64,000 bases of DNA from Candidatus Woesearchaeota archaeon (GTDB lineage: Archaea; Nanobdellota; Nanobdellia; Woesearchaeales; DSVV01). Location of the stretch: assembly GCA_038884615.1 (NCBI GenBank), contig JAWABL010000005.1, positions 45-64,044 on the forward strand, read 5' to 3'. How positions within the stretch are numbered: position 1 is the first letter of the stretch; every line of letters starts with the position of its first letter. The notes beneath the pieces were generated by a model that had not been told where the DNA came from, searched no databases, and saw only the letters and a program-made list of their open reading frames with translations. This document shows, one piece after another, positions 23,726-52,198 of this stretch. The position numbers and the translations under genes were made by a program.

Positions 23726-26700
23726 TTGAAAAAATCATACCAAATTAAAAAAGATAAAAATTGCATAGATAAAAATTGCACAGACATAGAGCCAATAGTC
23801 TTCACTTTACTGTTGTGCTCAAATATTTATCACAATGTTACTCATAAAATCAAAAATCGCATAAAAAAACGCCCCTCTCCTATTTTTATTGCTCCACTTT
23901 TAAAAACAAGAGCTAACTTCATTAATAATAAGAACTTACTAAGAATCTCTTTATTTTCCTTTATTGCATGTTTATTCTTATTTGCTCTTGTCAGTGCAGG
24001 GGATATTATAAGCCAAAATACAGAAGACGGAGTGACTGTAAAGCTTGCTCTTACAAAGAATTACTATAATATAAATGAAACTATAAAAATTGTAGTTGCA
24101 GCTTACATGTATAATACACAGATACTTTCCGTGCCTACAAAAGTTACAGTTATTGGTCCAGCAAACACTGAAGAGTTTTATCTTACAGGGAACCAGGTTG
24201 GTGAGTATTTTGGAGAGTACAAACCGAAAATCACAGGTACTTATACTATAAAAGCGACAGTTATGATTGACCAAAGAAACTATTCTACTGAACAAACCTT
24301 TGAAGTTATGCAGGAGAATGTTAACTTTGCGATTACTATACCTCAAGTTATAAACTATTCATATGGGCCTGTCAAAATAAGTGGAGACATCATATTTACA
24401 GACAATAATATCCCCATCCCAGGTGAGGTGTCTCTTCTTACAACAACCAAAAGCACGCCGTTCTTTTCCCCTCTTTGTGTGGTGGAATGTTCAGGCAACT
24501 GCAGCTTTTCATGCGAATTGAGCCAAAACATAGAGATTACTACATACACCCTCCTTGCCCGTAGAAGCTATAACGGAAAAATCTTTACAGCAGAAGAGCA
24601 GTTTGAAGTAACATACAATCCATTAATGGACCTTAGCATAAATGTCTCTCATGCTGAACAGTATCTAAGGAACGAAACAGAGTACATTGTTATAATTCCA
24701 AAGTACAGGGGCAACATACTTGCAGGTGCATATGTAAGTGTAAAAATTGTAGACCCGAACGGCTATGAATTCAACCTCGTGGCTGACGAAATATCAAGGG
24801 GTGTCTATCAGGCTGTGTTTCACGCTGGTGTTTTAGGCAATTATTCTGTTATTGTTAGTGTTGCCAAGGGTGAAGTTTTTGGAATGCAGAAAACGGCGTT
24901 TTTGCTTGAGGAAGCGCCATATATAATACCGCTTGACAGGGACTTCTCTATTGCAAGCGATTCAAAAACTGGAAAGGCTTGGTTGTTTGCAAATATCCAT
25001 GTTCCAAATTCAAGTGAACGGACATATCTTGAGCTCGGGATGCTCTCTGAAAAATACTTGCTCAATCTCTCAACAGCTGCTATCATCTTAGGACAAGATA
25101 AAATAAATCTTGAAGTGAAGAACAATAGGGTTCTGCTTCCAAGATACTCTGGTACTTTCCTGTTTGAGATAGGCGTGGATAATAAAACTCTACTAAAACC
25201 AGAATTGTCTGTGAGGCTTCTGCCTGAAAAAATATTTGTAAGGCCAAATTATGGATGGCAAAACAACTCTTTTGAAATAAGTGCTCTAGAGAGCTTTGCC
25301 GAGGACGCTAAAAATAAATCTGTAAGAGTCCATCTTAAACTTTATAACAACTCTAAAGCAAAATATATTATTAATGATGAATATACATTAAGTAGAAACT
25401 TTTTTACACAAATAAGCGAGGATGGTCATGATGAAGTTGTTTTCTATGCACAAGAGAACCATACTTATACTGTATATCTCTATACACTATCGAGAAAGTT
25501 CTTTAATTATGCACCCTTAAATCTTACTAATATCTCCCTTGTTGGTTATCTTGACGGAGGCAATCAGCCGTATCTTGAAACGCTTGACGGCGTGGTGTTT
25601 AGCTCCACTTTGTCAGGCATTGAGGTGTATAGCCATAAATTTGTTGAAATCTTAAAAACTCAGCTGAATAAAAAGAGGCTTTTGCAGGGAGACAGCGCAG
25701 TCTTGGAGGTAAATATCTTAAGCGTTGAACCAGTCTCAAGCAACTATACTCTCTTATGGCCAAACAAAACGATAATGGCACAAGGAACATTTAACCATAG
25801 CATATCTATTAACATATCTGATGATGCACCTATCGGTGACTATTTCTTGGAGATAAATAGCGTTGATACGGGAGGGGCAAGGGACACGGCGTTGCTTTAT
25901 TTGACTGTGCTTTCATCAAAACCGATGATAACTATAATAGGTAACACTTCCACTTCTGCTGCACGAAATAGCCAGCTGTTTTTGAAGCATACAATTATAA
26001 ACAACAACTATGAAAAGGCAGATACAATAGATCTTGAATACCTCGCAAACTTCTCTTCAGTCCTGTTCTATGATGCAGACGGTAAAACCCTGCTTTCAGA
26101 TACAAACAATAATGGTCTAAGGGACAGCGGACTTATTCCTCCAGGTGGTTCAAAAGACATTTTAATCAAAGTGCTGATACCGCCTAATGTTCCTCTAAAC
26201 ACCATAGAGACGATAACCTTGTTAGGAAAATCTTCGCTTGACTCTTCTGTTAATGCTTCCTCCACGGATGTCCTGCGGCTAGTTGCGTTTTTTAGCGCCC
26301 AAGAAATGCCTGTTAATGACCTTGCAATTTTGTCGCTTGATGTTGTTGAGGGAATTGCTCTTGTTAAGGTGAGGAACTACTATACTGAGCCACGGAGAGT
26401 CATACTACAACTATCCGAAAACGCTTATGCAGACCACTCCACTGCAAGCTCCCCTCTAGTTGTAAGAGAGATAGAGGTTAAACCAAACTCAACTGAGACC
26501 TTTGTTTTTGATATTAATTTTGATATTAATAGTACTTACGATTCTCCTTTACTAATTTCAGCAAGTTTGTTGCAAGACAACAACACTCCATATGCAGATG
26601 AAGTAATTGGGAATAACTATCACATAAAATTTATTAATAGTATGTGGTGGAATGAAAGTTTCACACACCGAATTGCTATACCTTTCAAGGAAACTCACAA

Positions 26701-52198: not shown

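Follow-up and report, generated by a model that had tools for sequence, protein, structure and literature searches.

At 9,159 aa, halomucin of Haloquadratum walsbyi provided the size reference in the preliminary description of the locus studied here. Among the DPANN archaea, the giants SVXNc_0300 (9,409 aa) and BNXNv_0298 (8,880 aa) of cultivated Nanohaloarchaeota have been described as membrane-anchored surface proteins named 'SPEARE', a class defined by a VirB4/TraG-like ATPase domain together with an adjacent secretion ATPase gene, and a role in host interaction has been proposed for giant surface proteins of DPANN archaea (PMC10266531). Reports from metagenomes include archaeal proteins of more than 10,000 aa (bioRxiv 10.1101/2023.11.21.568195). 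Large DUF2341/Laminin_G_3 proteins are found in archaea and Patescibacteria (PMC4858521, PMC11573180, PMC11809585), halomucins also being mentioned in PMC11573180. Large DUF2341 proteins have been proposed as adhesins (PMC4858521, PMC11809585), and those encoded in archaeal type-IV-pilus loci were proposed by Makarova et al. (2016) to be PilY1-like tip adhesins (PMC4858521). Beta-propellers of the integrin-alpha type, built from FG-GAP repeats, likewise occur in prokaryotes (PF01839/PF13517; PMC3192720).

The window analysed here, the whole 64,000-nt stretch of DNA, encodes an FtsZ 74–81% identical to those of Woesearchaeota MAGs, a similarity that supports the DPANN setting proposed earlier and by which the host is classed as a Woesearchaeota-type DPANN archaeon. 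A single ORF of 28,473 nt (28.5 kb) takes up 44% of the window, and lies among the following features:

19850–21064, reverse strand: FlaC-domain protein, a conserved upstream neighbour
21265–22299, reverse strand: archaellin with a canonical class-III N-terminus, a conserved upstream neighbour
23166–23714, forward strand: XerA-like tyrosine recombinase of 182 aa, catalytic domain only, 11 nt 5' of the giant ORF
23714–23718, forward strand: GAGGT Shine-Dalgarno-like motif, 8 nt 5' of the TTG start, read directly from the sequence
23726–52198, forward strand: giant ORF of 9,490 codons, TTG start, TAA/TAG-free, from the ORF listing and translation
52513–53775, reverse strand: archaellin directly downstream and convergent, with a canonical class-III N-terminus

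The translation of the giant ORF contains one stop, which is terminal, and zero Ns, while the longest stop-free run in the other five frames is no more than 258 aa. From base composition, the probability of 9,490 stop-free codons arising by chance is ~10^-278. The uninterrupted single ORF reported in the preliminary description was thus borne out, and it is a real, single, conserved gene. The GAGGT motif overlaps the stop codon of the upstream recombinase gene. Only two start codons, TTG at codon 1 and TTG at codon 30, lie 5' of the hydrophobic segment described below, so that the true length is 9,461–9,490 aa if either is the start; the N-terminus of the orthologue is much shorter.

This orthologue comprises P0006 and the gene next to it on contig CAZPXC010000009.1 of an independent NCBI MAG. 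It is co-linear with the giant ORF and shows the same gene order, and its identity to the giant protein is 57% across 4,746 aa and 59% across 1,840 aa. It is at least 8,369 aa long, at which point the contig ends, and it carries a frameshift, at ~27085–27103 of its locus, that could reflect a sequencing error or dispensability of the gene in that lineage. An exhaustive HMMER search recovered 3,817 relatives of the giant protein, including 373 proteins at E<=1e-30, which overturned the orphan-protein reading suggested by k-mer-seeded searches (four FG-GAP-only matches for the first 4,990 aa, each covering 3–6% of the query, and one 341-aa match for the module profile). An exact lookup of the protein in a protein collection gave no match, probably because its TTG start had been rendered as L instead of M, and carries no weight. 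Relatives are widespread across Woese- and Pacearchaeota, and they include P0012 (MFP4524439.1), named by NCBI as a DUF2341 domain-containing protein. Within the family the number of modules varies while the termini are conserved, and the giant protein is ~2–3 times longer than the named relatives. The earlier statement that the protein had not been characterised therefore stands for its exact architecture, but not for the large family to which it belongs. Along the chain, the following segments were delimited, all on the forward strand:

23930–24016, forward strand: sole hydrophobic segment (aa 69–97), signal-anchor or cleavable Sec signal
27236–27607, forward strand: Golvesin_C-type beta-sandwich (aa 1171–1294), 63–67 bits against a cutoff of 31.6
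28127–29242, forward strand: conserved family head region (aa ~1468–1839), '...NVQSYP...TGKHxLxFxFGND', no Pfam match
29249–29872, forward strand: probable ConA-like jelly-roll (aa 1842–2049), from Foldseek of an AF2 model, no HMM match
30977–31822, forward strand: Ig domain and first of the strong WWN domains (aa 2418–2699), propeller absent
32093–34237, forward strand: super-module 1 (aa 2790–3504)
34238–36355, forward strand: super-module 2 (aa 3505–4210)
36356–38458, forward strand: super-module 3 (aa 4211–4911)
38459–40543, forward strand: super-module 4 (aa 4912–5606)
40544–43402, forward strand: propeller-less insert (aa 5607–6559) of three sandwich-Ig pairs, a degenerate WWN domain (aa 6114) and PA14
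42539–42745, forward strand: PA14 (PF07691) core within the insert (aa 6272–6340), 33.8–34.7 bits (cutoff 24)
43403–45475, forward strand: super-module 5 (aa 6560–7250)
45476–47512, forward strand: super-module 6 (aa 7251–7929), modelled with AF2
47513–49516, forward strand: super-module 7 (aa 7930–8597)
50279–52174, forward strand: conserved C-terminal end-piece (aa 8852–9483) with Big_7, NPCBM_assoc/NEW3 (aa ~9187–9259) and CARDB-like domains

The hydrophobic segment, LLRISLFSFIACLFLFALVSAG, was the only one found in the protein, and no C-terminal anchor was detected; this single segment agrees with the earlier proposal of an N-terminal anchor or signal followed by ~9,400 extracellular residues. 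A class-III (prepilin-type) signal was considered and rejected, as the motif, canonical in the adjacent archaellins, is absent. The giant protein is acidic in net charge and contains 472 N-glycosylation sequons (NxS/T) versus 174 +/- 12 expected, while cytoplasmic neighbour proteins carry 0–0.5 per 100 aa. Its sequon content suggests that the protein is probably heavily N-glycosylated outside the cell.

The N-terminal head of ~2,400 aa is unique and includes the Golvesin_C domain and the probable ConA-like fold, with no recognisable domain in about half of its length (aa ~180–1170 and 1300–1840; Pfam at permissive thresholds). The conserved region at aa ~1468–1839 is common to 20 Woese-/Pacearchaeota MAG loci, all lineage-named ones among them belonging to Woese-/Pacearchaeota/Nanoarchaeia. 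For the ConA-like lectin domain of the preliminary description, support was obtained at the level of the fold but not from HMMs. The top 50 Foldseek matches of the AF2 model were all ConA-like, comprising CBM66, legume lectins, galectins, ERGIC-53 and GH131; their E-values were ~1e-4 and the highest TM was 0.59. The model itself, built from a two-sequence alignment, is of low confidence (pLDDT 57, pTM 0.63). Pfam models (Laminin_G_3, DUF1080 and similar) gave no match at E<=10 on aa 1790–2110, and the region had no PDB sequence match and no homologue in a k-mer-seeded database search. On the basis of the model, aa 1842–2049 probably adopt a ConA-like fold.

The protein also has seven super-modules of ~690 aa. 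In each, a beta-sandwich and an Ig domain are joined by a 'WWNxSWxYR' domain and by an FG-GAP propeller that carries five Ca loops. When the protein was searched as two halves, FG-GAP_3 (PF13517) reached 184.6 and 321.2 bits (cutoff 26.9; E = 4e-55 and 1e-97) and FG-GAP (PF01839) 28.7 and 53.5 bits (cutoff 22.1), with matches also found per module; in all, 36 FG-GAP_3 stretches were assigned. The 35 canonical DxDxDGxxD loops form seven clusters of five, spaced ~50 aa apart, and in none of the seven modules do their D, N and G positions vary. These data support the seven Ca-binding propellers proposed from the first reading. The AF2 model of super-module 6 has a mean pLDDT of 66, with 70–87 in the propeller part, where repeated four-strand blades were seen. 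Foldseek searches with this 679-aa model returned generic propellers and Ig chains, including CRTAC1 and SiiE, at low TM-scores, the propeller being cut by the unit boundary. The BIg domains of SiiE were the only PDB sequence match of the module profile (E = 0.0013). As in integrin-alpha and CRTAC1, the FG-GAP repeats carry canonical DxDxDGxxD Ca2+ loops; unlike integrin-alpha, the window protein holds seven propellers in one chain, each with five Ca loops, and the thigh, calf and beta-subunit domains are absent.

The preliminary description counted ten DUF2341-like modules. The count holds, with ten WWNxS[WFY]x[YFH]R motifs corresponding to eight strong domains and two degenerate ones (aa 973 and aa 6114), but the assignment to DUF2341 is less secure: PF10102 gave no match to the window modules even at E<=5 and none to the half-proteins, and the profile link drops below significance once the WWN motif is removed. 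In hhalign comparisons, the WWN domain aligned with true DUF2341 at 96.4% probability (E = 1.3e-9, 103 columns); after the shared WWNxSWxYR motif had been trimmed, this fell to 2.8% (E = 0.016), with an unchanged register and a result slightly better than that of negative controls. A PDB sequence search with the classic DUF2341 profile returned nothing significant. In relatives, classic DUF2341 domains score 31.7–73.4 bits with PF10102, and the WWNxSWxYR lead strand precedes both the WWN and the true DUF2341 variants, both of which follow an Ig domain and co-occur within the same proteins (for example P0012 and P0032). Compared with the large DUF2341 proteins, the giant protein shares with P0012 the same sandwich-Ig-WWN-propeller module and the whole C-terminal end-piece, and the lead strand is common to both. 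Relatives pair these modules with bona fide PF10102 domains, whereas all ten WWN domains of the window are divergent, with 'NSIRIxEY ... YYxVYFD' instead of 'DxRF ... YxYYGN', and in each super-module the WWN domain is coupled to an FG-GAP propeller. The likeness of the WWN domains to DUF2341 may thus be regarded as suggestive.

In comparison with the orthologue, conservation is lowest in the propeller-less insert between super-modules 4 and 5. Its PA14 match covers model positions 52–127 of 147 and scores above cutoff, in agreement with the PA14-like domain recognised earlier, and a secondary GLEYA match fell below its own cutoff. The C-terminal 632 aa align end to end with the C-termini of P0012, P0014 and P0047. 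Here NPCBM_assoc (36 bits against 24.4) and Big_7 (26–26.8 against 24.1) exceeded their cutoffs and CARDB itself lay just under (20.3 bits against 22.7), so that the Ig/CARDB-like sandwiches of the preliminary description are also supported.

Set against the closest described systems, the giant protein resembles the SPEARE proteins in its described features (a DPANN protein encoded by one gene of ~28 kb, in which a signal or anchor at the N-terminus precedes a huge, acidic, Ig-rich ectodomain) and in the host-interaction role proposed for both. It differs in its seven propellers of the FG-GAP type, its WWN/DUF2341-like and PA14 domains and its ConA-like fold. With SiiE of Salmonella and the RTX-type ice- or surface-binding adhesins it has in common strings of Ig domains, Ca2+ binding and lectin-type ligand modules; in contrast to these bacterial giant adhesins, it is archaeal, rich in N-glycosylation sequons and devoid of RTX repeats, and uses an N-terminal hydrophobic segment rather than a type-I secretion signal. 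The earlier framing as a size record is not borne out, given the 9,409-aa nanohaloarchaeal protein and the metagenomic archaeal proteins above 10,000 aa. The giant protein is a new and unusually large addition to the giant adhesin-like surface proteins already known from DPANN archaea, with an exact architecture that is uncharacterised.

Taken together, these data make it reasonably likely that the ORF encodes a genuine cell-surface protein, probably glycosylated, which most likely acts as a long, multivalent, Ca2+-dependent adhesin or tether. According to this model, the N-terminal hydrophobic segment would export the chain and then either anchor it or be cleaved, leaving ~9,400 residues outside the cell as an acidic, probably heavily N-glycosylated string of about 60–70 beta-rich domains. 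A carbohydrate-binding-type head would be followed by seven propeller-ended super-modules, interrupted by PA14, and by a CARDB/NEW3-type tail, and the ligands of the whole would be glycans or proteins borne by a partner cell or a surface. At ~4 nm per domain, the extended protein would measure on the order of 0.2–0.3 micrometres. We infer in this way its extracellular glycosylation, fibre-like shape, adhesin function and the identity of its target.

It is also conceivable, if unlikely, that the protein instead serves as a protective or structural envelope glycoprotein, similar to halomucin or an S-layer, which would form a hydrated glycocalyx around a tiny cell. The extreme sequon density and acidic net charge would fit such a role, no S-layer gene was identified within the window, and the size is close to that of halomucin-type proteins, which have been discussed as protective (PMC11573180). 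The likeness to halomucin, drawn from descriptions only, extends to an archaeal, extracellular protein of similar size. However, binding-type modules dominate the chain (FG-GAP with intact Ca loops, PA14, the ConA-like fold and Golvesin_C), and the domain set, with its FG-GAP, PA14 and WWN domains, is adhesin-like rather than mucin-like; mucin-like low-complexity repeats are absent, and TRF detected no tandem arrays within the ORF.

The genomic setting raises the question of filaments. The order FlaC-archaellin-(recombinase)-giant is conserved in three genomes, and archaellins lie on both sides of the giant gene in the window, although orthologous contigs end short of the position of the downstream archaellin. 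Of the flanking genes emphasised in the preliminary description, the adjacency of archaellin and FlaC is therefore conserved in orthologous loci, while that of the peptidoglycan hydrolases is not, and a functional link between the giant gene and the SLT/LysM genes is unsupported by synteny. This archaellin/FlaC neighbourhood is shared with archaellum- and T4P-associated DUF2341 adhesins, and together with the bona fide DUF2341 domains of relatives and the role already proposed for T4P-locus DUF2341 proteins (PMC4858521) it could indicate a filament-associated adhesin that acts with the neighbouring archaellin and FlaC products, like the proposed PilY1-like tip adhesins. We consider this improbable: the protein has no class-III signal, unlike the adjacent archaellins, its 9,490 aa are far above any known pilus-tip protein, the WWN domains of the window are not demonstrably DUF2341, and more distant family loci have no archaellin/FlaC synteny.

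The truncated recombinase keeps its position beside the giant gene in two other genomes and is apparently co-transcribed with it (11-nt gap). Were the archaellin, FlaC, recombinase and giant genes to form a unit in which the recombinase adds, removes or shuffles the ~2.1-kb super-modules in a programmed manner, the length or specificity of a filament-associated adhesin would vary, and a DPANN episymbiont would thereby undergo phase or antigenic variation. We give this idea little credence. The variable number of modules is compatible with shuffling by the recombinase, but is accounted for just as well by ordinary duplication and deletion. Invertible promoters or recombination sites near the recombinase gene were rejected as candidates, since the region 22200–24000 holds only AT-rich, low-identity repeats. 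A direct repeat of 34 nt, with one copy close to each end of the ORF (24274 and 52090, 71% identity), was likewise rejected as a recombination site, because it is produced by similar 'ETFEV' domain ends.

It is very improbable that the length of the ORF is an assembly artefact, created by chimeric, collapsed or expanded repeats. The gene is modular, and repeats are known to be mishandled in short-read MAG assemblies; moreover, exact-match scans of genome and metagenome contig collections with the DNA of the giant gene found no match, and hence no independent contig from the same population, and a single-sequence C-terminal query had no match among genome contigs. Against this, the modules are only 40–54% identical to one another in protein sequence and no near-identical DNA repeat in the gene exceeds 89 nt (at 90%), repeats too divergent to make assembly collapse likely. 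In addition, an independent MAG reproduces the module order across >6,500 aligned residues, the N- and C-termini are both conserved end-pieces of the family, and the frame is intact across 28.5 kb.

Finally, a SPEARE-type secretion 'straw', with a VirB4/TraG-like ATPase domain and type-IV-secretion-like delivery of effectors, is suggested by the similar size of the DPANN proteins from Nanohaloarchaeota (9,409 and 8,880 aa; PMC10266531) and is scarcely credible here, as Pfam scans at permissive thresholds found no VirB4/TraG-like ATPase or enzymatic domain in the giant ORF, and scans of its neighbours found no VirB4-like gene or other secretion ATPase adjacent to it.

The favoured reading, that of a long adhesin or tether, changes no concepts, as the kind of protein is known and its size is among the largest in archaea but no record. 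Woesearchaeota are abundant, uncultured and presumed to be host-dependent, and we know of no account of how they attach to their partners. The giant protein is a prime candidate for such attachment machinery, because it takes up a huge share of coding capacity for a small genome and its gene and module order are conserved in a related genome. Its discrete modules (FG-GAP, PA14, ConA-like and Golvesin_C-type) could each be produced separately and used as probes in glycan arrays or host pull-downs. More broadly, these results indicate that surface proteins of ~9,000 aa are not peculiar to the Nanohaloarchaeota among DPANN archaea, and that they can be built from quite different sets of domains.

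The giant open reading frame was recovered exactly where the preliminary description had placed it. It lies downstream of a recombinase gene and a pair of lytic transglycosylase genes:

16477-18033 and 18189-19445 (- strand), two SLT-domain lytic transglycosylase genes, one with LysM
23166-23714 (+ strand), tyrosine recombinase, 182 aa, catalytic domain only, ending 11 nt before the giant ORF
23726-52198 (+ strand), giant ORF, 9,490 codons with a TTG start in the ORF listing

The translation has a single terminal stop and the DNA no ambiguous bases, and a GAGGT motif is located 8 nt 5' of the TTG start. 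Given the base composition of the ORF, stops should occur about once in ~15 codons, and the chance of 9,490 stop-free codons is ~10^-278; over the same DNA the longest stop-free run in the remaining five frames is 258 aa. The product is high in N, S, T and G, low in Cys and acidic (930 D+E versus 518 K+R). The only start codons before its hydrophobic segment are TTG codons 1 and 30, so its length would be 9,461-9,490 aa if either in-frame TTG is used. The exact start is slightly uncertain, since the lysine-rich 68-aa leader is missing from the orthologue, which has merely ~10 residues ahead of its hydrophobic segment. The putative cytoplasmic N-terminus also contains a 15-nt tandem duplication (2.2 copies, window 23752-23784) encoding 'KDKNCIDKNCTD'.

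An assembly artefact is a very unlikely explanation of this ORF. Tandem Repeats Finder detected no arrays within the gene, its repeat modules share just 40-54% identity at the protein level, and the longest near-identical DNA stretch is 89 nt (90%); repeats that have diverged this far should neither collapse nor expand in assembly. Moreover, a co-linear orthologue is present in an independent NCBI MAG (GCA_964590935.1, contig CAZPXC010000009.1; locus L101). Its 5,700-aa product (P0006) is co-linear with giant protein residues 100-1087 (30% identity) and 1165-5883 (57% identity, a single HSP of 4,746 positions). A 2,669-aa gene follows with a 19-nt overlap, in another frame, and extends to the contig end; its residues 838-2669 match giant residues 6394-8225 (59% identity). 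These alignments indicate that this genome carries the same giant gene, coding for no fewer than 8,369 aa, with one frameshift dividing it and the contig end cutting it short. The split (L101 27085-27103) may be a genuine disruption or a frameshift introduced in sequencing or assembly, and its position corresponds to residue ~5883, the beginning of the variable PA14-containing insert. Because orthologous modules (57-59% identity) are more alike than paralogous ones (at most 54%), the module array is older than the divergence of these lineages. On the C-terminal side, residues 8852-9483 can be aligned end-to-end with the very C-termini of three related proteins (P0012, P0014 and P0047; 34-35% identity), stopping 4-7 residues short of each stop codon. 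The giant gene is real and conserved, and its head and tail are conserved end-pieces, with central module number as the main difference among family members.

The window flanks carry archaeal genes (ATP-dependent DNA ligase, a diphthamide-synthase-type enzyme, archaellins and FlaC), and FtsZ from the window shares 74-81% identity with Woesearchaeota/Nanoarchaeota MAGs. The head region of the giant protein was found at 20 loci in species-representative genomes, and the lineage-named ones are all Woese-/Pacearchaeota/Nanoarchaeia. Many entries in the FtsZ and head-region tables are 'uncultured Methanosarcinales archaeon' (binchicken) MAGs whose FtsZ and giant-protein genes are Woesearchaeota-like; the label looks like a placeholder or wrong taxonomy in public records. 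K-mer-seeded searches gave the impression of an orphan protein, which was overturned by an exhaustive HMMER search. With a non-propeller module profile, that search returned 3,817 proteins at E<=1e-3, of which 373 reached E<=1e-30. Among the best 150 matches, about twenty contain the full sandwich-Ig-WWN unit (lengths up to 5,700-7,549 aa), and one relative is named 'DUF2341 domain-containing protein, partial [Candidatus Woesearchaeota archaeon]' at NCBI.

From residue ~2400 to ~8900 the protein is made of a ~690-aa super-module, whose parts are, in order:

a ~100-aa beta-sandwich ('G.YRVY')
a ~100-aa Ig domain ('DTxPPxI...'; weak Big_13/PKD matches), followed by a short linker
a ~140-aa WWN domain, starting with WWNxSWxYR, then 'NSIRIxEY' and 'YYxVYFD'
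an FG-GAP propeller with five DxDxDGxxD loops spaced ~50 aa apart

Seven super-modules are complete, with Ca-loop clusters starting at residues 3283, 3974, 4684, 5379, 7026, 7711 and 8370. The remaining features of the protein (residue numbers) are:

69-97, sole hydrophobic segment
~100-2400, non-repetitive head
~116-178, weak Filamin-like Ig domain
973, degenerate WWN motif
1171-1294, Golvesin_C domain (63-67 bits, cutoff 31.6)
~1468-1839, region lacking a Pfam match, conserved in 20 Woese-/Pacearchaeota MAG loci
1842-2049, 208-aa ConA-like candidate in the head
2540-2666, WWN copy lacking a propeller
5607-6559, insert of three sandwich-Ig pairs, a degenerate WWN motif (6114) and PA14
6272-6340, PA14 domain (34 bits, cutoff 24)
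tail, Big_7, NPCBM_assoc (36 bits, cutoff 24.4) and a CARDB-like match (20.3 bits, cutoff 22.7)

As observations, the earlier counts (seven propellers, ten WWN-type modules) are correct. The FG-GAP assignment is solid (E = 4e-55 and 1e-97; 36 stretches; 35 canonical, intact Ca loops), and PA14 exceeds its Pfam cutoff, though only part of the model is covered. An AF2 model of super-module 6 was of moderate quality (mean pLDDT 66; propeller 70-87); its Foldseek matches, at low TM-scores, were propellers, including the FG-GAP protein CRTAC1, and Ig chains, including the giant adhesin SiiE.

The description of the WWN domains as DUF2341-like (PF10102) rests on motif, position and co-occurrence. 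A Pfam search at E<=5 gave no PF10102 match on any window module. In relatives from the exhaustive search, the sequence after the WWNxSWxYR strand matches PF10102 (E = 2e-20 to 2e-7), the model starting ~45 residues past the motif. Profile-profile comparison of the window's 8 WWN domains with 12 classic DUF2341 domains, both sets motif-selected, gave 96.4% probability (E = 1.3e-9, 103 columns); once the motif was trimmed this dropped to 2.8% (E = 0.016), with the register kept but barely above negative controls. The WWN domain is thus plausibly, not demonstrably, a divergent DUF2341. For the proposed ConA-like lectin domain, HMM, PDB-sequence and database searches returned no match to residues 1842-2049. 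A low-confidence AF2 model (pLDDT 57, pTM 0.63) suggests such an assignment at the fold level only: each of its top 50 Foldseek matches was a ConA-like jelly-roll (CBM66, legume lectins, galectins, ERGIC-53, GH131; E around 1e-4, TM up to 0.59).

The protein slightly exceeds the record from cultivated archaea but is not the largest archaeal protein, as had been entertained: UniProt catalogues archaeal proteins of >=5,000 aa (PMC11573180), and metagenomic ones of >10,000 aa, mostly from Asgard archaea, have been reported (bioRxiv 10.1101/2023.11.21.568195). As far as could be found, the sevenfold fusion of a divergent DUF2341-like domain with a five-Ca-loop FG-GAP propeller is undescribed; it is a variation inside a known class. 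For large DUF2341 proteins, an adhesin role has been proposed both in archaeal T4P loci and in Patescibacteria (PMC4858521, PMC11809585).

FlaC, archaellin, recombinase and giant gene follow one another in this order also in L101 and in the locus of a third genome (L082), with recombinase counterparts at 9450-9998 and ~5865-6365 (54% and 47% identity) and a 2-nt gap to the giant gene in L101; the order is not kept in the 17 more distant loci. The best NCBIfam match of the recombinase is archaeal XerA (positions 91-256 of 263; 99 bits, cutoff 220). The canonical 'LGH...Y' region at its C-terminus seems to be altered ('VGLKRSRAIQIF'), so the enzyme may be inactive or atypical, and no convincing inverted repeats or recombination sites were found around its gene. 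An 866-nt AT-rich intergenic region (22300-23165), with short tandem duplications (22622-22655, 22996-23019) and no ORF >=100 aa, separates it from the divergent archaellin gene. Upstream in L101 are the gene for another large Laminin_G_3 protein (1-3513; >1,608 aa, continuing beyond the locus) and a further small gene of the archaellin family (3515-3889), indicating that surface-protein and archaellin-family genes are repeatedly clustered in this lineage.

The SLT/LysM genes had been counted as part of an attachment apparatus; in the orthologous loci, the 10 kb upstream contain no counterparts of them. They encode candidate enzymes against bacterial cell walls, in an archaeon. Elsewhere in the window, a 709-aa fusion (4664-6793, - strand) of glutamine amidotransferase, asparagine-synthase and C-terminal diphthamide-synthase (Diphthami_syn_2/Dph6-type) domains may be a glutamine-dependent diphthine-ammonia ligase. 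Three predicted exported proteins of 912, 809 and 429 aa (58630-61368, 61469-63898 and 54456-55745, all - strand) have signal-like N-termini or sequon enrichment, their family matches being limited to a weak squalene-cyclase-like repeat and a weak PKD domain; BLAST detected no similarity between them and the giant protein.

The giant protein contains 472 NxS/T sequons, versus 174 +/- 12 after shuffling with composition preserved (z about 25). The density is 5 per 100 aa; cytoplasmic neighbours have 0-0.5 and the archaellins ~2.4. Read from sequence, this excess is a direct signature of an exported archaeal glycoprotein, and glycosylation of the protein itself would be expected. A role as a protective coat is improbable. 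Unlike the archaellins, whose class-III N-termini are canonical, the giant protein has no such N-terminus; an adhesin associated with the filament is somewhat less probable still. A secretion device like the nanohaloarchaeal SPEARE proteins can be dismissed almost entirely, as no ATPase domain was found in Pfam scans. We infer shape, binding and target: the evidence fits best with a long surface adhesin or tether that is multivalent, Ca2+-binding and probably heavily glycosylated. Its N-terminal segment would serve export and possibly also anchoring; about 60-70 beta-rich domains, at an assumed roughly 4 nm each, would extend on the order of 0.2-0.3 micrometres; and the binding sites would lie in the lectin-type domains (PA14, ConA-like, Golvesin_C) and the seven integrin-type propellers.
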